A DNA stretch of 63,999 bases, the filler included, from Basidiobolus ranarum (lineage: Eukaryota): assembly GCA_040143965.1 (NCBI GenBank). It is 20 parts of 20 records of this genome, joined end to end, with 100 filler letters (N's around TTAATTAATTAA, not from the genome) between each part and the next. Parts side by side here need not be neighbours in the genome. Positions count along the whole stretch, not along the records: positions 6,444 to 9,562 come from JASJQH010002716.1; 19 more parts are not named here. One strand, written 5' to 3'. Position numbers and translations under genes: made by a program. The notes below the pieces were generated by a model. That model was not told where the DNA came from. It saw only the letters and a list, made by a program, of their open reading frames with translations, and did not search any database. The first letter of the stretch is position 1. Each line of letters begins with the position of its first letter. This document shows, piece by piece, positions 6,444 to 63,999 of the stretch.

Positions 6444-6789
6444 CTGACTTTCAACATTCCCCCTCAAGCAGGCCTTCCGGATTTAGCACTAACCGGGGCT
6501 CATAACCTGTTGAAATTATTTAAGGAGGAATATTGGTCTGGCCAGGGGTTGCGCCTGGGGCCTCCTTCACTCTAGCAAGGTGCTCTAACTACTGAGCTAC
6601 CAGTCCTTGTATGCTATGCCTATATTGCTAGGGAACCTTAACCTAGTCTGTCAATGTATGGTACTTTGGCATTTTAGCTTTACAAGCAACTGATTGGCCT
6701 AAGACTTTATGTTCAGATGCAGTCACCATACTCCATATTTTCCACTTTGGGAATTGCTGCTTGTACCACAAGTCACCAGACTTTCAACA
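6444..6789 (-). mobile_element. TRIM (miniature non-autonomous LTR retrotransposon) with a tRNA-like sequence in its LTR
   Basis: On the minus strand: LTR 6789-6508 (TGTTGAAAGTCTG...TTTCAACA, 282 bp), PBS GGTTATGAGCCC (6507-6496), 51-bp internal domain ending in PPT TTGAGGGGGAA (6467-6457), then a second LTR starting TGTTGAAAGTCAG (6456-6444), cut by the contig end. Confidence 0.88.
6534..6606 (-). tRNA. tRNA-like (pseudo-tRNA) cloverleaf inside the TRIM LTR
   Basis: GGACTGG TA GCTC AGTAGTTA GAGC A CCTTG CTAGAGT GAAGG AGGCC CCAGG CGCAACC CCTGG CCAGACC A: 73 nt with canonical spacing and perfect D and T stems. The T-loop is degenerate here but reads GGTTCAAATCC in the copy at about 45026-45040. 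The anticodon arm is imperfect. Confidence 0.75.
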
Positions 6790-6860
6790 TGCACAACTCA
6801 CAAAACTCTTAGGATATTGCAGTTATAGTTGCAACTTACACCCTAAAACAACTACAGCAT
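6790..6860. repeat. Fragment of a dispersed repeat, also at about 51580-51650
   Basis: Both sites share ATATTGCAGTTATAGTTGC..CTTACACCCTAAAACAACTACA. Confidence 0.65.
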
Positions 6861-12880: not shown

Positions 12881-13655
12881 TAAGAAGAAAAGTAACATAT
12901 TCTGTGATTACTGTAAAAGAACTGGCCATTTAAGCAAAGATTGCTTTAAAAGAATTGCAAAAGAAGAAAAACATACTGAATCTGGAAATGTAGTTACAAC
13001 AGAAGATCACTTGTTCATATCTGCTCTATCTATGACTACCAACAAGGATTCTCAGACATGGTATATAGTTCTATTCAATAATGGCTTAAGAGACTTGGCC
13101 ATATTGGATTTGAGTATTTGAACAAAATGATCATAAATTGTCTAATTTCTGGAATTCAAATTAACCCCCCCAACCAAAATGGAATTTTGTGAGGGTTATA
13201 TATATGGAAAACAAGCCAGGCAACTGTTCAAGAGCTCTGGCTTAGTCAAATATGTCAAAAAATTGGATCTAATTCATTCAGATTTGTGTGGACCTATACA
13301 AAATTTATTTTTAGGTGGAAAAAGATATTCAATCACATTTATTGATGCTTATACAAGACACACTTGGGTCTACTTTATGAAAAGAAAAGAAGAAGCTCTC
13401 TTGATATTTAGTGATCTTAAAACACTTGTGGTGACTGATACTGGAACTAAAATCAATAAAATATATACTGATAATGGTGGAGAATATACTTCTACACTAT
13501 TTAAGCACTTTTGCAAAGTTCATGGAATTAAGCAAGAAACTACTGCCCCCATTCACCTCAACAAAATGGAGTTGCTGAAAGAGCTAACAGGACTATAGTA
13601 CACATGGCAAGATCTATGATAAATGCACAAAATTTATCTCATTACTTTTGGGTGG
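12881..13655 (+). mobile_element. Copia gag/integrase remnant
   Basis: CDYCKRTGHLSKDC knuckle. ORF 13179-13598 has LDLIHSDLCGP, ITFIDAYTRHTWVYF and TDNGGEY. Confidence 0.92.
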
Positions 13656-14112: not shown

Positions 14113-15997
14113 CCCTAACAAAAATAAAATTGATTTGATCTGGATTGGATCCACCCTCCAAAATAGCAAAACTGTCAGTGAACCATCACAATATTGGTGG
14201 CTTGCATTCTGCCAAGAATTTTGATGGTGTGATGGTGGATTTTGACGGTATTCATACATGTTAAAACATTGATCCTCAAATTTGGCATGCATTATTAAAT
14301 ATCTGGCAATTTTTGAAAAAATATATTTTTTCAATGCCAAATTACTGGGTTTACTGTTGTAGGAATTCAAATCAATATCCATGCCTTTATTTAGATATTT
14401 TAGGCTTTGTATTCCAGCCATAATGAGAATCAAAGAATAGAAGAATCTAGTTGTGTTTAGTCTCTACATATGCACATACTTGACTGATTAGACATAACTC
14501 AACAACATCCATATGCTTTACCAGCAAACTAATAGTGGAAAAATTGCTAAATATCTGAAATTTTGAATAGCACTGACACTTAGCAAATAGCTGACTCTGG
14601 TTACCATTCATAATAAGAATAAGCTCTTGGATTTTGGCAAATTTCCATAAAGAATTCAGCCAATATATCCCCAACTTGCAGTCAATAAATGTCCTGCCAC
14701 AAGTAGATGCATCATTGCTAGAATGGATTACCCCATGGCTAAAACAATAATACAGCATATCTTGATCTATCTCACCAAGAAATCTGTCTTGCAGCTTTCC
14801 TAAAAATACCATCAGATTATTACACAAACAAATTAGTCCAAATCATAGAGGTACTTACTCTGTCTCCATGGATTGGGCTTTGTTGCTGTTATTGTGCTCA
14901 AACAATGTGAAAACCCATGAGCACATTGAAAAAAGCCCATTGTTGGCAGGTTAATATACTCTGGAGTCTCCTTAACCCATTGCATTTCATCCATCACTGA
15001 TTTTGCTGATACATTTTTAATCAGATTAGCATATGGTAACACTGACAATTCCACATGGAGCATCATTTCACTGCAGGTGCACTCCATTGGGAACTCCCAG
15101 AATGTATAGAAAGGGCCTATAATCTCTAAGCATTGTGAAAGGTGCAGCAGGGAATATACTGAATATTGGCATACATTCAGTCTATCTTCTTTAAATCTGT
15201 GATAAAGTTTTTCATATCCAATTACAAAATCTTTGCACAATTGCTGTATCTACCTGAGATCTACCAATGTGAGTTGATGCCATAAGAATATATTAACAAT
15301 ATTGACAAACAACTCCCAATGTTGCCAATATTTATCAGGCAGAAATCTTTTCAAAATTCCACTTGATTATATACAAATCCAATACTTCCAGTCTTTGCAT
15401 TTGAATAAATGCCTAGATGAGTGGATATTGATGGGAGTCCGGGTAATATATGATGGTATCTTGACATTTTCAAGCATTTTCCCAATCAATTCAAACTTTG
15501 ATCCTATCTTAAATGGTTCATTCATATTGAATTTACCACTATATAGCTGAGTGAGTAGTTTTGGAATGTTGTTGAATAGTAAGTGCATTGTGCCTAATAG
15601 GACACTCTGGCTCCAGCTGATCCCCTTTAGCAATAAAATCTTAGGCTTACAGCTAATACCAAGTTTGATGTTAGACTCACTATTTGGTGAACTGATATCA
15701 GTGATCATATTGAAATCTGACTGGGCTCTTGATGGTAAAATCATGAAGTTTAGTATTGTATTTGGATAGTAGTAATGCGTATGCCTGATAGAATAAACTC
15801 CATTGATTTGACAAAATCTACAGCAAGATAATGCATTGTGCCTGCAAAAACCTCCAAGTTTACTGATGGCAGGAGTGTCACCAATACATACAATGATATT
15901 AGCTTTAATAAAATATTCACCCATCTGAACCCCATTAGATAACCATTCAAATTCTGCAATCAAAGGCTCCAAGAAGCTATCTATAAGCACTGGTGAT
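14113..15997 (-). mobile_element. CMC/EnSpm (CACTA-superfamily) transposon: decayed Tnp2-type transposase and 3' terminus
   Basis: IDSFLEPLIAEFEWLSNGV, CIGDTPAISKLGGFCRHNALSCCRFC, GTMHLLFNNI, FKCKDWK and SLLHL..GP..FWEFPME are Transposase_21/DUF4218-like motifs. CCCTAAC terminus at 14113. Confidence 0.9.
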
Positions 15998-16097
15998 NNN
16001 NNNNNNNNNNNNNNNNNNNNNNNNNNNNNNNNNNNNNNNNNTTAATTAATTAANNNNNNNNNNNNNNNNNNNNNNNNNNNNNNNNNNNNNNNNNNNN

Positions 16098-16361
16098 CGA
16101 AAATTTCTTAGAATAATGACACCAACTTAGAAGTTCTCAGATATATAGATTTTGATAACTAGTGCTAGAAGCCCCAAACTTTGCACACATATTCCTGGGA
16201 CCTTCCTTAGCACATTATATGCTTTAGTTTGTTTACATCTTGACAAAACTATAAATGTCAGTTGAATACTCAATAAGTCAACAAGTGAAAACCACTAATT
16301 TGTCTAGTTCTCCAAAACACTTCCAACAGGCTCCCAAAATACTTGAACAGGTGATGAGCCC
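16098..16361 (+). mobile_element. Copia LTR family A (3' part) plus PBS
   Basis: Matches 29139-29467. Ends AACA at 16349, followed by GGTGATGAGCCC. Confidence 0.85.
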
Positions 16362-29138: not shown

Positions 29139-29467
29139 TGTTGAAATTAGCATTGCCTAAGCACCTATATAGTCATATATAGCTTAGTACTTAGTTATCT
29201 TATATCTCACCAAGATATTATCCATTATTCTCATAAGGAATTTACTTAAAAGTTCTCAGATATATAAATTTTGGTACCTTGTGCTAGAAGCCCCAAACTT
29301 GGCACACATGTTCCTGGGACCTTCCTTAACACATTCTACATGCTAGTCTGTTTACATCTTGACAAAACTATAAATGTCAACTTTCAACTCAATAAATCAA
29401 CAAGTGAAAACCACCAATTTGTCTAATTCTCCAAACCACTTCCAACAGGCTCCTAAATACTTTAACA
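29139..29467 (+). mobile_element. Solo LTR, family A
   Basis: TGTTGAAATTAGCATTGCC...TTTAACA with internal TATAAAT and AATAAA. Confidence 0.9.
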
Positions 29468-33542: not shown

Positions 33543-34856
33543 ATGGGGAGTCCTGGTCAATTTACTGACCTTTGTCATCAATTTGCATTTTCCGTTTGCC
33601 CACTGGTAGGCCCACGACCTGATGGCGTGGCACCCGATTGTATTCCGCGTAACTTAGACTTATGGGGGACATTCTTTTTGGAGCCTGGTATGCTTTTGAT
33701 TAGCTTCTCGTTGCATGTAGTTCTTGATCTCACCTCTTTTCGTTTTGATCTCACCTCTTTTCGTTAGGTGCCCTCATAATGGACTTAGGGTCGATGGGAA
33801 TGGCAGCAATTATGGCCTACAATATATTTCTGAAGTATACCGCCGTTGGTAAGCGTGTAGAAATGAACTATCTAACTTATGGATGATTCTTATCACATTT
33901 GATTCTACAGGCCGCAAAGAAATGCTCATATTTTTCTACTTGTATTTCACTACGCTTATATTCGACTTCATCATGCTGTCAGGACTGATTCCAGCATCGA
34001 ATGGTGCTTACAAGGTACTAAATCACTACATATCTCCTCTAAAGATCCTCACCTAACCGTATTATGTTAGTATATCGCTGCTATACACGTGTCTCTTATT
34101 TCCACTACAATCTGGGCACTCCTCGCGAATGGCTTTGTCGGTTTTCAATTTGCCGAAGATGGGTCGAGGTTATCCCTTTGGGTAAGCATCGCTTTGGTTA
34201 GAACCAATGGTTTTCTATTTAGTATTACTCACTCGATTCTTTTCTAGTCGCTGAAGATTTCCTCCTTTATCGTATTTGCCTTCGTCTATGTTGTCGCTAT
34301 TGGAACTTTTCTAGACTGGACCACTGGATTTAGTCCCGCCGCGCCTTACGCATTATGGGCGATTTATTGGGTCTTGAATCCCGTTGCTGTTTTCATTTAC
34401 TTTGTTTTACAAGTGATTCTTGTAGTGAGAACTCTACAAGAGCTCTGGCCTCTGGGTAAGTTTTTATTCCAACAATTTCCTCGCAACCATTTAACTAACC
34501 CATCTTTAGGGGATATCATTCTTGCCTTGGTCTCGTTTATTGCAGCCAATGTCATTTCTAGTTTCGTTTCTAAAGTGATCTGCAAAGGAACCAACCATTA
34601 CATTGATGGCTCATTTTTTGCCGTGCTATTCAATCTATTTGCTGTCATGATGGTCTACAAATACTGGGATTCCATCACTAACGAAGAGCTGGAGTATTCC
34701 TATGGAGATACTGGTTACAACTGGGAAGTGCGAGAGTTACTTACCGCCGAAGACGAATCCGACTTCCAATACGAATTTGATGGTTCAAGCACTGGCGGAT
34801 CAAGTATCAGGGGGAAATCACCATTGCGAACCGCTTCCAGAGATCGATTCTTATAA
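33543..34856 (+). CDS. CHS7: Chitin synthase export chaperone Chs7, 6 exons, 331 aa
   Basis: Exons 33543-33687, 33768-33848, 33911-34014, 34071-34181, 34248-34455 and 34510-34856 (996 nt, all introns GT-AG). Motifs KYTAVGRKEM, NGFVGFQFAEDG, WPLGDI, HYIDGSFF and VMMVYKYWDSIT. Confidence 0.95.
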
Positions 34857-35371: not shown

Positions 35372-35489
35372 TTTCAGCTATACAAGCAACTGAGTGGCCT
35401 TAGACTTTGTGTTCAGATGCAGTCACCATACTCCATATTTTCCTCTTTGGGAATTACTGCTTGTACTACAAGTCACCAGACTCTCAACA
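35372..35489 (-). mobile_element. Second copy of the tRNA-TRIM LTR (5' part)
   Basis: Aligns without gaps to 6672-6789 (CAAGCAACTGA.TGGCCT.AGACTTT.TGTTCAGATGCAGTCACCATACTCCATATTTTCC...CAAGTCACCAGACT.TCAACA). Inserted in a Copia integrase. Confidence 0.9.
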
Positions 35490-37270
35490 AACATGAGATA
35501 AATTTAGTGCATTTGGCACAGATCTTGCCATTTCTTTTATAGTCCTGTTAGTTCTTTTAGCAACTCCATTTTTCTGAGGTGAATAGGGAGTAGTAGCTTC
35601 ATGCTTAATTCCATAAACTTTGCAGAAGTGATTTTATAGTGTTGAAGTATATTCTCCACAATTGTTAGTACATATTTTCCTGATCTTAGTCTCAGTTTCA
35701 GTCTCCACAAGATTTTTAAAATATCTAAAGATAGAGAGCTTCTTCTTTTCTTTCCATAGGGTAGATCCAACTGTATCTTGTATGGTTGTCAATAAATGTA
35801 TCAAAATATCTTTTTCCACTGATGGATAAATTTTGCATAGATCCATATGTATCTGAATGAATTAAATCCAAATTTTTAACAGATTAGATTAAATTAGAAC
35901 TCTTCATTATCTCCATGGCTGGTTTTCCATATGTACAACCCTCACAAATTTCCCCTTTAGTTGGGTGGTTACTTTAAATTACAGAAATTAGTTAATTTTT
36001 AATCATTTTTCTTAAATAATCAAATCTAAAGTGTCCCAGTCTGTTATACCATAATTGAATAGTTTCTTGAAGGGAATGACTTATGTTTACACATAAACCC
36101 CTTGATTTATGTGTCAGCTTGTATGAGTTCTGATCCTTTTCATCTAAAACTAAATAGTTCACATCTAGATCAATGATGATATGTCCTGACTTATCAAATT
36201 GAATTTTAATCCTTCTGAGGTTGCCTTGTATACAAATATTATAATCTTGGCAATATCTGGAACATGTAGCACATCCTTAAAGGTATATAGTTTCTCTTCA
36301 GAAGCATCAGTAAAATTGACTTGAATTGTCCTCATTCTATTGGCATCTAATTTATGGCCATCTCCAACAAGAGCCTTTCTATTTAGGATTTATTCATAAT
36401 CCACAAACCAATGTTTTTCTTTGATGAAATGTTAGGAAGCGCCAGAATCAATATATAGCATGTGAGAATCCTTGTTATTGGTCATAGATAGAGCAGATAT
36501 GAGCAAGTGATCCTCTGTTATAGCCACACTTCCAGATTCAGTATGTTTTTCTCCTTTGATAATTCTTTTAGAGCAATCTTTGCTTAAATGGCCAGTTCTT
36601 TCACCATAATCTCAGATTATGCTGCTTTTATTTTTTAAGTGCTTTTCACCTCTATATGAAGGTTCTCTATAGCCTATTTATGCATTTTCTCATTCCTTTG
36701 GTTAGATCTTTATTTGCATAAATTGCCATCCAGTTGTCTGCCAAATACATGATTTAAGGTCATATTTCTAGTTCTTGATTCTGGAGTCATCACTAGGCTA
36801 TGAAACTTGTGTGCCAGGCCATTTAGGACTGTAACTATAATATCTGGATAATTAGTTACATCCAATTTTTCAAAAGAGGGAAAAGTGTCAGAAATTTGAC
36901 AAGTAGAGAATACAGAGAGTGCAAGCTTGGGCTCATAACCTCTTAAAGTATTTTGGGAGCCTGTTGGAAGTAGTTTGCATAGTTCAAGAAATTGTTGGTT
37001 TTCAATTAGTGATTTATTGAGTTGAAAGTTGCTATTTATAGTTTTGTCAAGGTTTTAACAAACTAACATGTAGAATGTGTCAATGAAGGTCTCAGGAGCA
37101 TGCATGCAAAGTGTGAGGCTTCTAGCACAAGTTATGAAAATCTATATAGCCCAGAATTTTTAAGTAAATTCTCTTGAGAATGATGGGTGAAATCTTAGTG
37201 AAATATTGAAAATTAAATACTTAGCTATATATATGATTATATAGGTGCTTAGGCAATGCTAATTTCAACA
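35490..37270 (-). mobile_element. 5' half of a Copia element, family A: 5' LTR (37270-36941), PBS (36940-36929), decayed gag-protease-integrase
   Basis: LTR-A is followed by GGTTATGAGCCC, then YIDSGAS protease and ICTNNCGEY integrase remnants. Confidence 0.9.
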
Positions 37271-44988: not shown

Positions 44989-45080
44989 TATTGAAATTAT
45001 TAAGGGAGAAATATTGGTCTGGTCAGGATTTGAACCTGGGACTTCTTTCACTCTAGCAAGGTGCTACCAGACTTTCAACA
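44989..45080 (-). mobile_element. 92-bp internally deleted tRNA-TRIM LTR
   Basis: Minus strand TGTTGAAAGTCTGGTAGCACCTTGCTAGAGTGAAAGAAGTCCCAGGTTCAAATCCTGACCAGACCAATATTTCTCCCTTAATAATTTCAATA. Both LTR ends and the B box are retained. Confidence 0.85.
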
Positions 45081-49763: not shown

Positions 49764-52074
49764 ATTGACATGCTCTCAAGTACTTCTACAATAACCACAC
49801 TTAACAGCAGGTAAGCCTACTATAAATAATAAAGGGTGTTGAACCAATAGATGATATGTATAAGCTACATGGTTACTAAGACTAAGGATTCAGAGCCAAA
49901 GGGTAAATGGGGGATCTTATAAGCTGTAACATTACTTACTGTTTACAAAGTGCTGAGCTCACAAACCAGTGTTAACAGGAATGGTGCCAAGAAGTAATTA
50001 GTTTGGAAAACACTCAAAACAAATTCTACAAATTGATAAATATTACTGACAAATGACAATGAGCATTGGAAATTCTTGAAATGGAATTTATAAAGCCCCA
50101 AACACTACTAGCAAATAATAAGGTGTATAGAGCCAAAAATAATGTAACCTTCTCTATTACAATCAAAACATAAACCTCTCCAAGCTTTACATGATGACCT
50201 GTTTATTGAACACATACAGGAAACACAATGCCCAAAAATATACCAAGAAGTCACCAAGCAATGCTGCTTATGATTTGTAATGACACAAATACACACTTGA
50301 TTTTGTGGGTTAGATGAAGAATAGGATTTGAATTCAAGCTCAATTTCAGCAAAAGGTTCCCTTGTTGGAGAAGAAGATTCTCAACAAGAATTCCTTGGAT
50401 TTCCAGCAATGTGTAACAAATCAATTGATATTATTGGTTATAGCCAAGATTCCATCCAGATATTGATGACTGGTTACATGTATACAGGTAATCAGGATGT
50501 TACCATTATATTAGCATTGAACCATAGTATTTTATCAGTGACAAGTGATCAATATTGTGCAATAAATGTATGCATTCAGTAAAATTGTAGTTATCAATTG
50601 TACATGAGAGATTGAAGAAACCCTGTTTGTTACTTTGATAGCAATGCTAATGTAGAACAAAATGGAGTATTTCACACTGATAACATTGAGCTATTGATCA
50701 ATGCTTTGTCATCTATTAATTTATTGGAATTGAGATATATCATTCACTCACTTACTAAGTTCTTTGATTTTTAAATAACATTGTGAGCTGATGTGGAACT
50801 CATGGTAGGACTGACAAATAACTCATCTTATGCTTTTCCAAGTATAGTACTTCAAGCAGAGACTATTTTTGTGTCTATAGAAATGCATACCTTAATATAA
50901 ATGGATGGTCAGTTGCTTAAAATTATCATATACATGGAGAATTCAGCTATACCTATGTGAGAAATCTGGCTGTACATTAGGCTGCATTGTTATATACACT
51001 ATGGATCATAGGTAAGAGAAATGCTTGGGTTTTATTATTTATTGAAGTATTGATTGAATGCCCTGTTGCTTTGTCTGCTTGATGTAATATATTGCATATG
51101 TTTTTATATAAAATTTGTATGATAAGTGAGAGAAATGCTATGATTTTCTAATTAAAGCATTTACTGAATGCCATTTTACCTTGTCTGACTGTTGTATTAT
51201 ATTGTGGCACTCAGAGTAGCTTGCTGTCCTTTGAATATATAGATAACATGGTTAGGACAAAATGTGCATTAATCTCACTACTTGTAAAACTNNNNNNNNN
51301 NNNNNNNNNNNNNNNNNNNNNNNNNNNNNNNNNNNTTAATTAATTAANNNNNNNNNNNNNNNNNNNNNNNNNNNNNNNNNNNNNNNNNNNNAAGCCACTA
51401 TATTCTTTTGTCGGGCACCAGCATATTATTCAACAGAAAGCTGGACATTGCATTGTGGTTTATCAGTCCTTAGACATTTCTAGAGGCTTGATTTCCTTTC
51501 ACAAAGACCCAAGAGGCAAGAGAAAGACCCATATTACAGTACATCCCAGAGTTATTCAACCGTGGTTATCACACCCTTTGGACACCTCACAAAAGCCTTA
51601 CAATATTGCAGTTATAGTTGCTGCTTACACCCTAAAACAACTACACCAGCATTATTGAATGTCATCTAAATTATTCAACAATTCTTTATTTAGCTAGCCT
51701 GTTGATTGGCTTATGGCTTTATGAGGTTAAATATGTTGGCATGTCATTATTTATACTTCTTAGGCTGCATATTCTAGCCACAATGTGAATCTAAAAAAAC
51801 TGGCATCCTATTGTGCTTGGTCTCTATATAGTAACATAATTGACCAATTAGACATATTTCTACAATATCAACATGCTTTCACATCCAACTGATGGTGGAA
51901 AATATATTAAGCATCTGAAATTTGGAGTGGCAGTGGCAATTCACAAATAGATGATTTTGCTACCACCAGCATTAAGAATAAGCTCCTTTATTTATGCAAA
52001 TTTTTGTAACGTACTCAGCCTGAATATCCATGACTTGCAATCATCAAATGTACTAAAACAAGTGGAAGTGTCAC

Positions 52075-54055
52075 TATTAAAGTATTTGGGTGCCTATTGG
52101 AAGTGGTTTGCAAAATCAGAGAAATCAATGGTTTTCATTTATGATTTTGAGTTAGAAATGCAACATTTATAGTTTTGTAAAGATGTAAATGAACTAACAT
52201 GAAACATATGTTGAGAAAGGGCCCAGCAAAGTGTGTGCAAAGCTTAGGGCTTCTGGCACAAGTTTTAAAAAATCTATATATCTGAGAGCTTCTAAGTTGG
52301 TAAAAGTGTCCTAAGTTCGAGTTAAGAATAATGGGTAATATCATAATGAAATGTACAACAGCTAAGTAATAAGCTATATATGGCTATATAGGCTCTTAGG
52401 CAATGCCAATTTCAACATTCTCTCTCAACTGAATAGTCATATAAACAATTCCTAAGGAAGATCTAAATTTCTCAAATTTTGATCCAGGAAATGATTTAAT
52501 TGATGTATCTGCAATCATGTCTTCAATAGGGCTATAAATTAAGTCAATACACCTGCTCTCTAAAGTCTCTCTAATTGAATGATGTCTAATATCTATATGC
52601 TTGCTTTTAATAAGAAAATGGGATTTTCTGCCAATTTGATATCACTTTGATTATGTTAAAATGTTGCAGTAAATGAAGTTTGAGAATAACCTAAATCTGT
52701 TGAAAGTTTTCTTAATATATTGCTTCTTTTGTTGCTTCACATGCAGCTATGATTCAGCCTCTGCTGTTATGAGCACAAAAATCTCACAAAATATGCTATA
52801 TCCAGCTATGTTTCAACTAAGTTATACATTGACCTACCACCCATTGATTGACAAGGAAATTTCTTGCTTCTATTTGAATCTAAAAATATCTGATTTAAGC
52901 CATTTGGGTCAAGTTAGGATTTGTATCCATTGGGGTAAAAGATGGAGTACATTCTTCCATTTAGAGCTTATTTAGTATATCTAGGATATACTTACACTGG
53001 TTTAATTTAATTGTTTGGTAGTTGTATTAATTTTAATTTGAATTCCAAGATAGCTCATCATTTCACCACAATCAGTCATTTTGAATTGGCAGATAAGCTG
53101 GATATGGTTCTCCCTAAAGATGTCAAGGTATTGGTTGCAATAATAAGGCCTTCTACATATCAGGCTAATAAAGTGTAGGTTTGTCTTATCTTGCCTGAAG
53201 TAGATATAACAGTCAGCACTACTCTTTTGGTATATAGGTGCTTCCAAAAAAGCATCTATGTTGCTATTGCAAGCTTTTAGAGATTGCTTTAAGCCATACA
53301 GTGTGTACTGGAGCCTACTAACTTTTTTATTGTGTTCTGGGTCCACAAATCCATCTGGCCGGTTCATATAGATCTCCTCACCAAGCTCACCATGCATAAA
53401 AGCAGTTTAACCATCCATTTGATTTATGATAACCGGCAGCCCAGCTGACATTGCTGAAATCAATATATTTGAGTTAAACTCTGCTACATTAGCAAAAGTT
53501 TCTAGATGATCAATTCCTGGGGCTTGGGAATTGAATTTGACTCCTAGTCCAGCCTTGTACCTTTCAATATCACCATCAGAGTTATATTTAACCTCAAATA
53601 CCTGATGTCAGTGAATTGATTTTGAATCATCAGGTAAGTTAGTGAAAATTCAGCTTTGACTATCCATTAAGGCCTGGTACTCATCAGCCGTTGCATATCT
53701 CCAAAATTTCTTGTGGGGTCATTTAGGGCCTCTTTTACAGTCTTGAGTTCATGTTATTGAGCTGTGCAGGCATAGGTCCAATTATGAGACTCATAGATAT
53801 GGTAATCATGGCGATTTCTAATTTGATTAGATCACATGGTATAGGATGAAGATACTACAACTTCTGGCATTTTATTGGGCACTTCAGCTGGCAGAATCTT
53901 GGTTGAAAGGTCCACAGGAAAGCTGCTCTCTTCATTGTTTTGATTTGAATTAGTTTGAACAATTGGATTGGGAGGATTTTGATTTTCATCATCTTTCATC
54001 TTCATCAAACAAAACATCCCTGAACTTTATTGATTTTAAATTTTGGTATCATAAA
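52075..54055 (-). mobile_element. Copia RT-RNase H remnant, PPT and 3' LTR family A (52417-52075)
   Basis: HGELGEEIYMNRPDGF, LYGLKQS and KHIDIRHHSIRE. PPT TTGAGAGAGAA abuts TGTTGAAATTGGC. Confidence 0.9.
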
Positions 54056-57789: not shown

Positions 57790-59783
57790 AATTGCCTAGT
57801 ACCAGCTCAAAAAGCTTTAAATTGGAACCTAAAAGCACAAAATACATATTTCATGGATCCTGTGATGGATCTATAGCCTTCAGACTGGTTGATGCTGAAA
57901 ATAAGAAGTTAGTTAAGTGCAGAGATGCCATTTCTGAAGAAAAGGTCACTTTCCAACCAAAATAACACTTCTTAATCATGAAAACACAATTAGCACTATC
58001 CAGGATGTGTTTGGCAATGTTCCAGCTGTATCTGCGCCCAGTTAAACCAAATTTCCAGTTTCAGTTACATCAAAGGAGGTTTAGCATCTAGAAGATCATC
58101 TACAGTGAGAAAGAAGCCAAGGAACAGGTGGAAAACTTCCAATAATGATGTTGATGCTTTGCAGCATGCTGTGACCAGCCACAGACTCTGGATCAAGCAC
58201 CAGGATTGGCAGAATCAGAATTATGGGAAAAAGAAATGTCTGATGAGTTTTTGTTACTTCAGGACATTAATAAATGAGTATTAAGTTCCCTACCATCAGG
58301 AAAAATGCTAATTGGTTGCAAATGGGTCTATAAGGTCAAAAATTGAGCTGATGGAACCATAGAAAGTCACTAAGCAAGATTAATTGTAAAAGGTTATTCC
58401 CAGTTGAATTACATATAACCTTTACTCCAGTAGCTACATTTGGCCCCACTAGATCAATCCTGGCACTCTCGGCCATCCATAACTTTTATTAGTATTGAAA
58501 GTTTGAAGAAACAGTCTTTCTAAATGGAGATCAAAAAGAAGAGATCTATATAGGGCACCTAGATGGATTTGTGGACTTAAAACACCCTGATATGGTCTGT
58601 ATATTGCAAAAAATTGCTTTGCAGACTCAAACAGCACCCATAGCATGGTGCAACAAGATAGATACCTGTTTGGAAGCACTGGAATTCCAAAAATCCACAG
58701 CAGATCTCAGTTTTCATGTCAGAACAACTAGAATTAGGATCCTTATCTTGGCACTATATTTGGATGACTTTTTCATAGCCACAATTAATCTAGAATCACT
58801 TAATCAAATCAAAGCAGCCTATCAAGTGAACTTCAGATAGCTGATATGGGTGAATTAAGTTCTCTTCATGGAATCCTAGTCAAGAGAGATACATTTAGAG
58901 AGAAAATGATGGTGAAGGAGTTTAGGTACAACCTTGACATCCTTAAGCACTTCAACCTGAAGAATAGCAAGCCTGTATCAATACTAATGGATTCCATTGT
59001 AAAATAGTTCAAAACTTCATCCAATATGGCCCAAAATGACTCAAATCAAAGCCAGGAGTTCCCTTATCCATCAATGGTGGGATGTTCACTATAAAGAGTG
59101 GTTTGAACACATTGAGACATTGCTGTGGCAGTGGGAACTCTCAGCCAATATCTCAAAAATCCATGATTGGAGCACAAAACTGCAGCAAGATAAATATTCA
59201 GGTATTTGGGAGGAATTGTTGATTGGGTTCTGGAATACTCTGGCACTCCAGATGCACAATATTTTGAAGGCTATAAGGACTTGGGAAGAAACCTTGATGA
59301 TAGAAGATCAACAACTGGGTATACTTTTCTCTATGGTATGGAGCCATAACTTGGAGTGGTAAGAAGCAACCAACCATAGCACTTTCCACCACAGAAGCAG
59401 AGTATATGGCCATCTCTGCTACTACACAAGAACTATGTGATTAAGGAAGTTATTTACAGACTCAGGATACATGCAAAGATTTGTTATCACTGTATTTTAA
59501 GCTAATCAAATTTGTATTTTGTGATCTAAAAATCCTACACTTCATGCTAGAACAAAGCATATAGATATTAGGCATGATTTTGTTTGAGAAGCAATAGAGA
59601 ATGATAAAATTGAACTTGTCAATTACCCTACTAAAGAAATGATTGCTGATATCTTGACCAAATCTTTAGCTATAGCACAGTTTGAATTATTGAGATAACA
59701 GTTAGGTTTAAGAGAAATACAAAATATTTAGTTGAGTAGGAATGTTGAAATTAGGTAAATAGCACACATTATTTAGTAGTTAG
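57790..59783 (+). mobile_element. Copia family B RT-RNase H, PPT and start of 3' LTR (59743-59783)
   Basis: LALYLDDF, ALSTTEAEYMA and HARTKHIDIRH. TTGAGTAGGAA is followed by TGTTGAAATTAGG. Confidence 0.92.
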
Positions 59784-60887: not shown

Positions 60888-60987
60888 NNNNNNNNNNNNN
60901 NNNNNNNNNNNNNNNNNNNNNNNNNNNNNNNTTAATTAATTAANNNNNNNNNNNNNNNNNNNNNNNNNNNNNNNNNNNNNNNNNNNN

Positions 60988-61766
60988 CAATTAATCAGGA
61001 AATCTTGCCAGTAAGCTGGGTCCTCTCCAGAATATTCGTCGAGTTCCATATTTACCCATCTCCAGCTTGTAAAACCGGCAGTTCGCAAAGCCCAATCATA
61101 TGTCTCAAATGACCACCAAAAAATATCAAATGTAACAACCGACTCATCTGAGTTAAACAGTTCGTATCTGAGCAAGTCTTGCTCCTTCCTGGGAGAGTTT
61201 TCATTCACCATGGTTTTAAGTAAGCTGTACTTCTTCACTTTCTTCTCCATATCTGTGGTGTATTTGTTTGGATCATCACCCGGGTTATCGTTGAGAGCAA
61301 CCAGTTTACCACCCTCTTTAAGGTTGGCAGCAATTACTTGACAAAATTTCAACAATTCTTCCCGGGTATGCGCATAGCATAAAAGGTATGTGGCAGCAAC
61401 AACATCAAACTTCGGTAGTTGATCAACTGGTTCAGTTGTCGACATATTAGCCACGTCGGAGATTTTGTATTGTATGCGACCTTTGCGCAGAGAATCTTGG
61501 GCTTCCTTACTTTTAGCCATATCTAACATAGATTTGGAGATATCTACACCATAAACAAAGGATGCTTTCATTTCATCTCTAAATACGCGGCTATAGTAGC
61601 CATCTCCACAAGCTAGGTCTAACACCCAACTGTTGGTCATCGAACTTCCAATTAACTTCACTAGGGTTGCCTTCTCCACCAAGTGTCGAAACGGAAGCTC
61701 CTTTGACTTCGTATATTCGCTTGCAATTGCATCATATGCAGCATAAGATTCAACTACTACAGTCAT
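60988..61766 (-). CDS. Class I SAM-dependent methyltransferase, ToxA-like (last few codons cut by contig start)
   Basis: Intronless ORF of about 259 codons with VLDLACGDG, GVDISKSML, DVAN, FDVVAATYLLCYA, LKEGGKLVA, WSFETYDWALRTAGF and a C-terminal YWQDF. Confidence 0.9.
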
Positions 61767-63999
61767 CAGCGGTATATAGAGGAAATTAAAGATGAATAAG
61801 TGTTATGAAATTACACGGTGAATGGAGAAGAGATGTATATTAAATATAGTTTGTAGAGTTGGTCAGGGATACATTGGGTTTTTTATACTCCTCAACATCC
61901 CCTCTTTAGTGATCCGTTTCATATGAATCAACTATGGTCGCACATGCTATGAATCCGTTTCTTTCTCTTTTCTCGATATAGACAAGTCCATCGTCAAATA
62001 TGTGTGAATATATACCTACTGTATTATAGCGCCTAAACTTACAGCCATAAAAGCATATCGTTACACCTATCATAACTCATCTATACAAGTACTCAATCTA
62101 TCAGTCATTAGTTAGCAAGTTGATATGGATTGGCATTCAATACATGTGTAGTATAATTGATTCAAACCTTTCAATTCTATATTATGAAATCCACTTTGAA
62201 CTGGTTTGAAGCGAAATACATATAACCGAAATGTATATTCACTGCTGATGTATATGTATTGCCAAGTGTGGATCGGAACTGAAATTGCTTGTTTTACCAG
62301 TCGTGCCACTGAGCGGAGCCAACATAAGAGGTCTCCTTCGCTTATCTAAGAATTGATCATCTTAACAGACTTCCATGTTGCACTGTACTAGTAACGTGAA
62401 CTAGTATTGAGATAGCGACTATCAGCAGGTTATGACATCAGCCCCAAGGATACGTGAAATACAGGAAATAAGCCATTGTGATTGAGTAATTGTTGATACT
62501 ATGGTTTGCTTGATTGTGCTACTACAATAGATGGTAATTTGGGCTGTTGATCTTGGCAAATCCTTATTTGGAACCATCATGCTAACAGAGGCTGTTGGGA
62601 AATCAAATATGTCCATCATCTTCATGTATTCATCCCTTGGTAGCATCGGTTACTGGAACTTATTGCAGCTATGTGTGGGTAACTAATGGTGCACCTAATA
62701 TTTGCTGCCATACCCATTATTGTTAATTTGATACTACGTAATGCCTTAATTCATCCGTAGCTACGTCGGTAACTACGCAAGAATACTTTTATATCCAGAG
62801 ACCTGCTGGTTTATATTGCCATCGAAAATCGAGTTAGCATATATATCCTGTGCGATATCTCCTTACTACATTGCGGCAACTAAGGATCAGTTATATTACA
62901 ATCACATTCACATTCATTTCTTTGGATACAGTCATAGTAATTATGTTGATGATACTAGTAGCATGTATATCCCTGGAGTTGTCAGATGTTGTATGCGTTG
63001 TGAGCATTCTCAGGAATATCACTTCTCAGTGCTACTTGCTAATATTTTACTGCGTTAACTCAGATAAGTTGATGACCTCGACGAGCTTGGGGTATTCAAA
63101 TCCCTTGGCTCTTGTTTGAATGCAGTTACTGACCTGGGGTTTGAATGCTCAATGATTATCTAGTGAAATAAAAGTATTGGAAAAGTCTTGGCTCTGAAAC
63201 TCCTGTGAAGTGCACCGTCTTTGCCTAACTCATGTTCTATATACTGAGTACCACCCGAATTTAGAGGTAACTGCAATTACGATATCTAAATGGTACAAGT
63301 TTGATGATCGCGGCTCAAGAGGGGTTTTTCTTGGTTAGCGAGTAGAAGAGGTGCATACTGGTAATATACCTCTACCTAAACCTAAATCTATAAATGCAAC
63401 TTGAGTGTGTTTACTCTGATAGAAGCAGTATTTATCCTATCGATAAGCTAAGCACTGGAGATGAACGATTTTTCTCGGAGAATTCTAAAGAGGTTTCAAT
63501 TAAAATAAATAGGTGTCAACTCTAGTTCCAAATATATTCTTAGATGCACCTAAAGTAATCTTAGCAGAATTCAATTGAGTATAAATCATTCTAGAACAAA
63601 CTGAGAGGGGATATATACTGGTTGATAGATTCATGGCCAGTAATCCCAGTTTTCAGATTATTATTTGAATTGACCCACAGACTGATATTTAAATTGTAAC
63701 CCGATTGATTGTATGAATCATCTAGCAAATCTAAGCAAAATAGGCCAATTTAGTCGCCTGTCTGGTTTGATTTGTTCTCAATGTTAGACAGCCATTATAT
63801 TTGATTTCTCTTACGTGGAGAAGCTCTATGATTTAATGTTACGATTCTATTGGCAAATCATCACGTGCTTTAGCATCATATTATATAGATGGATGTCTTG
63901 TTTTGTCCATTCCATAACCCTAGCCCTAGTGTTCGATATCATTACCCCTCACTTTTAAAATTCAAAGAGTTCCTTCGTCACACGCTTTTGTTTTGGTGT

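Follow-up and report, generated by a model that had tools for sequence, protein, structure and literature searches.

A sequence of 346 nt at positions 6444-6789 of the DNA analysed here, read on the minus strand, has the layout of a miniature long terminal repeat (LTR) retrotransposon that carries a tRNA-derived sequence inside its LTR. We refer below to the whole stretch of 63,999 bases from Basidiobolus ranarum as the window. It is composed of 20 contigs of 3.0-3.1 kb each, arranged in order of decreasing size and separated by 44-N runs around a TTAATTAATTAA linker, and holds about 62 kb of actual sequence; a contig end is to be taken literally at each of these N-spacers. Because the contigs are artificially joined, whatever appears to run across a spacer is an artefact. 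The parts of the element, all on the minus strand, are the following:

6789..6508, 5' LTR of 282 bp, TGTTGAAA...TTTCAACA (TG..CA), read from the sequence, with a 5' boundary common to copies 2 and 3 described below
6607..6789, upstream part of this LTR, 183 nt (U3 under the RNA polymerase III (Pol III) model discussed below), with a TATA-like AATATAG at 6620-6626
6534..6606, tRNA-derived sequence, 73 nt, LTR nt 184-256, found by ARAGORN and Rfam
6507..6457, whole internal region, 51 nt, non-coding, starting with GGTTATGAGCCC and ending with TTGAGGGGGAA
6507..6496, primer binding site (PBS) GGTTATGAGCCC, 12 nt, an exact 12-mer that also follows a Copia LTR
6467..6457, polypurine tract (PPT) TTGAGGGGGAA, right before the second LTR and similar to a Copia junction near 52417 (minus strand)
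6456..6444, presumed 3' LTR, of which the first 13 nt TGTTGAAAGTCAG are present, 12 of 13 as at the LTR start, before the contig end cuts it

The original prediction for this locus had placed a minus-strand LTR of 282 bp here, followed by an internal part of 51 nt with a PBS and a PPT and by the first 13 nt of a second LTR, and its coordinates are all correct. The PBS and the PPT lie exactly at the two ends of the 51-nt core; the former abuts the 3' boundary of the LTR, and the latter is followed by TGTTGAAAG. Open reading frames (ORFs) within the bounds of the element do not exceed 46 aa, and those over the tRNA part do not exceed 24 aa. Within the window, the upstream LTR part (6607..6789) resembles only copy 2. 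A hairpin of the form CCGG-TTAG/CTAA-CCGG had also been proposed for the core, and it is not in the predicted minimum-energy fold, which is itself unexceptional (-11 kcal/mol, z +1.57, with 194 of 200 shuffles folding at least as well). These observations support a miniature, non-coding element laid out as LTR-PBS-PPT-LTR, whose LTR contains a sense-oriented sequence of tRNA origin, and a complete element would come to about 615 bp.

A search of the window with the 346-nt element by BLASTN and nhmmer finds two more members of the family besides the one above, which we will call copy 1. Both are on the minus strand:

35489..35372, copy 2, LTR nt 1-118 with 92% identity, inserted in the integrase region of a Copia element and cut by the contig end
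45079..44989, copy 3, a 91-nt short form whose matched part (45065..44991, 75 nt) is 85% identical, cut by the contig end

That two further LTR copies lie at contig ends had been foreseen, and both are real and situated in degraded Copia sequence, but they are fragments rather than full LTRs. In copy 3, LTR nt 1-15 lead, by way of a CTGGT common to both sides, into the 3' two-thirds of the tRNA-like sequence and then into the LTR tail, and it is missing about 170 nt of the LTR and an additional 14 nt of the D arm. We considered whether an insertion of 168 nt between CTGGT repeats had turned a short, 'tRNA-only' LTR into the long one, and dropped this idea because a microhomology deletion fits copy 3 equally well; three copies cannot decide between insertion and deletion.

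In all three copies the similarity begins exactly at TGTTGA, and the sequences upstream of this point, in three of the 20 contigs, are unrelated to one another. Paralogues of the flanks of copy 1 (51648..51579) and of copy 2 (13447-13642) continue without the element, and they diverge from those flanks at, or within 3 nt of, the point at which the LTR starts. Because of these uninterrupted paralogous sites, the 5' end of the LTR is a true insertion boundary for copies 1 and 2. Every copy is embedded in degraded Ty1/copia sequence, two of them in its sense orientation; an RVT_2 domain adjoins copy 3, and stop-riddled remnants of gag, protease, integrase and reverse transcriptase (gag-PR-INT-RT) adjoin copies 1 and 2. 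In copy 3, which is about 15% diverged, the 3' part of the tRNA-like sequence has kept its position with respect to the LTR end; this segment is therefore a feature of the family rather than an insertion peculiar to copy 1. The 70 nt right upstream of copy 1 (6790-6860, minus strand) are a different repeat (TGTAGTTGTTTTAGGGTGTAAG...), also seen at 51579-51648 (minus strand), which interrupts a Copia RT, and the element is consequently nested at least two levels deep.

The PBS provides a link to the Copia elements of the window. An exact match to its 12 nt is found at 36940..36929, directly after a Copia LTR, and a version with one mismatch is found in the same context at 16350-16361; the window holds three matches with at most one mismatch, against 0.16 expected. 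The LTR at the first of these sites represents the candidate helper type, and its family has eight further matches in the window:

37270..36941, minus strand, Copia LTR of 330 bp, TGTTGAAATT..., followed by the PBS at 36940..36929 and then by degraded gag-PR-INT

The element and Copia also share their termini, TGTTGAAA and (C/G)AACA, and a PPT context of TTGAG(R)G(R)GAA running directly into TGTTGAAA. At the Copia PPT/LTR junction near 52417 (minus strand), TTGAGAGAGAA precedes TGTTGAAA, where the element has TTGAGGGGGAA before TGTTGAAA. GGTTATGAGCCC is the complement of GGGCTCATAACC, the CUCAUAA anticodon loop of the initiator tRNA-Met (tRNA-iMet) with its flanking G and C runs. Priming by the anticodon loop of this tRNA is described for copia, for Ty5 and for most fungal Helenus elements in the main text of Kojima (2024, Biology 13:119, PMC10886601). 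With a PBS identical to that of a Copia element in the window, and with termini and PPT context in common, the proposal that the element is mobilised by Copia-type machinery is upheld as likely, and the Copia family of the window, or a relative of it, is the likely helper to judge by these shared sequences. Two observations sit uneasily with this assignment. Stop codons abound in the Copia copies of the window, and the RT ORF in the flank leads to no intact Copia polyprotein from Basidiobolus, only to generic Ty1/copia proteins with a best identity of 64%.

The junction between LTR and PBS has a wide distribution. An exact 20-mer, TTTCAACAGGTTATGAGCCC, which covers the LTR end and the PBS, occurs at no fewer than 120 public metagenome loci; among the matches listed, it always lies at the same type of LTR-end/PBS junction, TTTCAACA against GGTTATGAGCCC, and several of the loci run into Copia-like coding sequence or into a second LTR. 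Because it recurs at at least 120 LTR/PBS junctions, the 20-mer places the LTR/PBS boundary of our element and links the element to Copia-like elements, and it is probably a generic and very widespread signature of fungal Copia. We considered these loci as relatives of the family and rejected them as such, since they have nothing in common with the element beyond the LTR end, the PBS and some 12 nt more, and since ARAGORN, which does detect the element's own tRNA-like sequence as a control, reports no tRNA at any of the 120 listed loci, either from -600 to +1500 of the PBS or anywhere else in the locus. This absence argues that a tRNA in the LTR is specific to the element's family and is not a general trait of Copia LTRs. 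A 24-nt motif from the anticodon arm of the tRNA-like sequence, made degenerate at the three differences between copies 1 and 3, has no match in public metagenome, genome and viral contigs when searched as an exact pattern.

Two further observations concern these metagenome loci themselves. Many of them come from one series of related records. Two, L064 (about nt 37-380) and L002 (about nt 330-665, both in oriented extracts), are miniature LTR elements that are complete, their LTRs measuring about 68 nt; the TGTTGAAA...TTTCAACA ends and the PBS for the tRNA-iMet loop are those of the element, and L064 is flanked by a 5-bp repeat in which four of five positions match. By eye they seemed to hold internal tRNA-like A and B boxes, and this was dropped after Rfam gave no tRNA match in them at E up to 0.1.

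The class that these features call to mind is Helenus, defined in the main text of Kojima's paper (PMC10886601) as TRIMs (terminal-repeat retrotransposons, miniature in size) that carry a sequence of tRNA origin in the LTR, and grouped there with Cassandra and Ajax under the name TRIMp3. The original prediction had named Helenus for tRNA-bearing TRIMs, in agreement with that description. We propose that the element is probably a copy of a Helenus-type TRIM, with two LTRs around a 51-nt core of PBS and PPT, in Basidiobolus ranarum or a near relative. A different account would have no propagating miniature at all: the repeat of 282 bp would come from a larger Copia-like element, autonomous or large and non-autonomous, as its LTR, and 6444-6789 would be either a one-off internal deletion that spared just the PBS and PPT or a solo LTR beside a foreign PPT and LTR. 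Several findings favour this account and weigh against ours. The 51-nt core is carried by one copy only, the other two being LTR fragments, and for this reason a propagating LTR-core-LTR family is a presumption. The second LTR amounts to 13 nt with one mismatch, and as many LTR families here begin with TGTTGAAA, a start that is generic in this genome, only about five of those 13 nt discriminate, one of them differing. In addition, the first 24 nt or so past the LTR resemble the start of the Copia internal region at the metagenome loci. We nonetheless regard this account as improbable, because the PBS and the PPT at the exact ends of 51 nt constitute the minimal set of cis signals of a TRIM, because nowhere in the 62 kb is the element's LTR joined to coding sequence in the order LTR-PBS-gag, and because published Helenus families are equally compact according to the main text of PMC10886601.

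A contig end cuts each of the three copies, so that the 5' flank is the one flank visible and no target-site duplication is seen, which is a further weakness of the proposed Helenus-type assignment. Short contigs of about 3.1 kb that break inside repeats, three of them ending in the element's family, could also mean that reads from different repeats were fused into a chimera at the contig end and that the order LTR-core-LTR is absent from the genome. Against such an assembly artefact, the junctions are biologically exact, CA meeting the PBS and the PPT meeting TG, and the PBS is that of a Copia element in another contig. Exact junctions are not expected from a chimera, and we consider an artefact highly improbable.

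The tRNA-like sequence is the part of the LTR that sets the family apart from ordinary Copia. ARAGORN reports a single gene in the window, at 6606..6534, as tRNA-Ser with anticodon AGA, and the sole gathering-level Rfam match in the window is likewise a tRNA (a score of 45 bits where 29 is the cut-off, with E 2.4e-6 and model positions 1-71 of 71 aligned). A 73-nt tRNA cloverleaf, in the sense orientation and stopping 26 nt short of the LTR end, had been predicted, and both programs agree with it. Two pairs in the Rfam alignment are non-standard, one in the acceptor stem and one in the anticodon stem, and the variable arm is short. A working tRNA-Ser has a long variable arm, which this sequence of 73 nt lacks, and we therefore regard the segment as a pseudo-tRNA. 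At a low threshold, Rfam finds no further degraded tRNA-like copies in the window (one tRNA among four matches at E up to 5).

How might such an element move? In the model that we favour, the packaging, priming, plus-strand and integration steps are taken from established LTR-retrotransposon biology, and the Pol III step from the TRIMp3 hypothesis. In intact copies, Pol III would start at the first nucleotide of the tRNA-like sequence (LTR nt 184) under the direction of internal A and B boxes, and nt 184-282 would then be R-U5. As the element has no T-run, the polymerase would continue across the core and the entire 3' LTR until it met a first T-run in the flank, giving a transcript sufficient to regenerate both LTRs. 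This RNA, made up of the R-U5 of the 5' LTR, the core and the 3' LTR, would be packaged in trans by Ty1/copia proteins (Gag). The minus strand would be primed by a fragment of tRNA-iMet through its anticodon stem-loop, in the manner of copia and Ty5, and the plus strand would start from the purine tract. Finally, a Copia integrase would recognise the TGTTG...CAACA termini that the element has in common with the co-resident Copia families. The idea had been put to us as a SINE-like promoter on an LTR chassis (SINE, short interspersed nuclear element); the part of it that stands is the sense-oriented tRNA-derived sequence within the LTR, but the idea itself is already in print as TRIMp3 (main text of PMC10886601).

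We give slightly less than even odds to the view that the tRNA-derived segment acts as an internal Pol III promoter in intact copies. In the copies of the window, the boxes themselves argue against an active promoter. The A box of copy 1 has its core, TAGCT, and has TAG where YGG is expected, and its B box is degenerate, with GGCGC instead of GGTTC (T arm GGCGCAACCCC). Copy 3 has a canonical B box, GGTTC (T arm GGTTCAAATCC), and is without an A box. The state of both boxes is thereby read from two informative copies, too few for a consensus. Because its B box is mutated, copy 1 is probably dead for the Pol III step. Judged by eye on the alignment of copies 1 and 3, conservation is no higher in the tRNA part than in the LTR tail. 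The original prediction had also drawn attention to the absence of long T-runs, and TTTT is indeed absent from the sense strand of the 346 nt, but this is not unusual, for TTTT is also absent from 46% of 2000 dinucleotide shuffles and from 275 of 2236 (12%) 346-nt tiles of the window. The absence is permissive for Pol III read-through, no more, and carries no statistical weight.

A rival explanation accepts a genuine TRIM or LTR family, and sees in the tRNA segment an inert passenger, the relic of a tRNA-derived SINE or of a tRNA retro-copy that had inserted into an ancestral LTR, with transcription by RNA polymerase II (Pol II) from the upstream LTR or by read-through from Copia. The degenerate B box of copy 1, the deleted A box of copy 3, the lack of excess conservation and the insignificant absence of T4 are all as this explanation would have them, as is the position of all three copies inside Copia elements, two in the sense orientation. 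It can also call on the TATA-like AATATAG that lies 14-20 nt upstream of the tRNA start, although this motif is compatible with a Pol III upstream element as well as with a Pol II promoter. The main text of PMC10886601 lends it further support, proposing that Helenus arose by insertion of a SINE into the LTR of a TRIM and stating explicitly that the Pol III activity of Helenus is unproven. The same source bears on the other side, since it gives as the conserved boxes of Helenus an A box (TRGCY, YGG) and a B box (GGTTC), and these are the part that is conserved across many independent Helenus lineages (section 3.5). The segment, moreover, occupies the same place in copies that are about 15% apart, has the sense orientation and is to this day scored as a full cloverleaf. 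For these reasons we think an inert passenger rather unlikely, if well ahead of a deletion or solo LTR.

The neighbourhood of the element is rich in other repeats. The Ty1/copia LTR family of the candidate helper at 37270-36929 (minus strand; TGTTGAAATTAGCATTGCC..., about 330 bp, with a TATAAATAG box) is abundant, with nine matches in the 62 kb, at 72-86% identity; members are also found near 29139, 18097, 39216, 16125, 49439, 52417 and 28851, two of them at contig ends, and the coding parts seen with this family are all stop-riddled. Further repeats that start with TGTTGAAA(G/T)T lie at 1732 (minus strand), 25920 (plus), 52698 (plus), 59743 (plus), 24914 (minus) and 11208 (plus). Purine tracts precede some of these, such as GAGTAAAGAA before TGTTGAAAGTTCC at 1732 and GAGTAGGAA before TGTTGAAATTAGGTAAATAG at 59743, and the repeats are additional LTR families. 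An ORF at 15367-16038 (minus strand) resembles Transposase_21 (tnp2/CACTA-like) weakly, its 22.7 bits being under the Pfam cut-off, and a class I S-adenosylmethionine (SAM)-methyltransferase ORF of 288 aa lies at 60939-61802 (minus strand).

Among the few host genes in the window is one for Chs7, a chitin synthase export chaperone, at 33543-34853 (plus strand), with several introns. An ORF within it, 34248-34853, matches Pfam Chs7 (E 3.8e-41). The best relative of the Chs7 read-through ORF, at 91% identity, is 'Chitin synthase, class 7 [Basidiobolus ranarum]', followed by a B. meristosporus protein at 74%; going by this match, the host is the fungus Basidiobolus ranarum or a near relative. A rust fungus, which GC content, CpG depletion and the published Helenus hosts might have suggested, is rejected on the strength of the Chs7 match. 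Across the window GC is about 35%, the observed/expected ratio of CpG is 0.30, and TG/CA is in excess at 1.27, and the CpG depletion together with the TG/CA excess suggests heavy cytosine methylation and deamination of a repeat-rich fungal DNA.

On balance we incline, by a modest degree, to the conclusion that Helenus-type TRIMs, dependent on Copia and possibly driven by Pol III, exist outside Dikarya, in Basidiobolus. If this is true, the fungal Helenus design, which combines a tRNA in the LTR with priming by the tRNA-iMet anticodon loop, is either far older than the approximately 130 million years proposed for Pucciniales or has originated again independently, and in the second case a 'tRNA promoter on a Copia chassis' would be a recurrent solution. 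The class would then also include members from a lineage that branched early among fungi and whose genome is large, repeat-rich and CpG-depleted. The family may be abundant, because 3 of the 40 contig ends in the window fall in it. Abundance would mean that tRNA gene annotation is inflated by pseudo-tRNA 'Ser-AGA' calls, would help to explain the shattering of short-read assemblies of Basidiobolus ranarum, and would bear on whether Pol III-promoter TRIMs have a repeated origin wherever half-tRNA-primed Copia elements meet tRNA-derived sequences. The element opens no new mechanism; its class has been known since 2024 as Helenus and is apparently unreported in the Basidiobolus lineage, since our search of the literature for elements of this type in Basidiobolus turned up none.

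Comparison with known systems helps to place the element. With tRNA-derived SINEs (SINE2) it has in common that it is short, non-coding and dispersed and has a tRNA-derived part with A and B boxes, which in SINEs forms the head. They differ in that SINEs are mobilised by long interspersed nuclear elements (LINEs) and are without LTRs, PBS or PPT, whereas the element has the cis signals of LTR retrotransposition. Drosophila copia and yeast Ty5, in contrast to the element, are autonomous and coding and have Pol II promoters in their LTRs. The LTR end and PBS of Drosophila copia presumably resemble those of the element. Both copia and Ty5 agree with the element in having a PBS right after ...CAACA that is complementary to the anticodon stem-loop of the initiator tRNA, and in their TGTTG...CAACA termini (for the priming, see section 3.6 of PMC10886601).

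The other two members of TRIMp3, as presented in the main text of the same paper, are Cassandra of plants, with 5S rRNA in its LTRs, and Ajax of nemerteans, with a 5S promoter fragment (PMC10886601). Like our element, they are miniature LTR elements whose LTR holds a fragment of a small-RNA gene with an internal Pol III promoter, a putative one in the case of our element; the fragment in their case is 5S-derived, of promoter type 1, whereas that of the element is tRNA-derived, of type 2, and the hosts are different. Cassandra is the only TRIMp3 for which transcripts are shown (PMC10886601).

The closest likeness is to fungal Helenus, to which we compare the element by its published description (main text of PMC10886601). 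The fungal hosts listed are 18 Pucciniales species together with the Agaricomycetes Agaricus bisporus and Coprinopsis cinerea (Table 1), to which the text adds Amylostereum areolatum; Basidiobolus, which lies outside Dikarya, is absent from this main-text table, and supplementary Table S1 might name more genomes. The screen behind it took Repbase as its starting point, went on from there to related genomes and was non-exhaustive. Helenus elements are described there as 311-1263 bp in total size, from a TRIM screen of less than 1000 bp, and the roughly 615 bp that we expect for the element would fall within this range; its core of 51 nt is shorter than the 85 bp that the paper singles out as short. 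[quoted passage not shown] The tRNA-derived sequence within the TRIM LTR is sense-oriented in both. Fungal Helenus pseudo-tRNAs are often predicted as tRNA-Ser-AGA, Thr-AGT and others (Ser-AGA in Helenus-9_PSt, Helenus-2_UVF and Helenus-6_CroRib; Table 2 of PMC10886601), and the element resembles them in having a pseudo-tRNA with a mismatch of isotype and anticodon. In the features that were checked, the element fits the published Helenus class, and we consider it probable that it represents a new Helenus family in a new host lineage.

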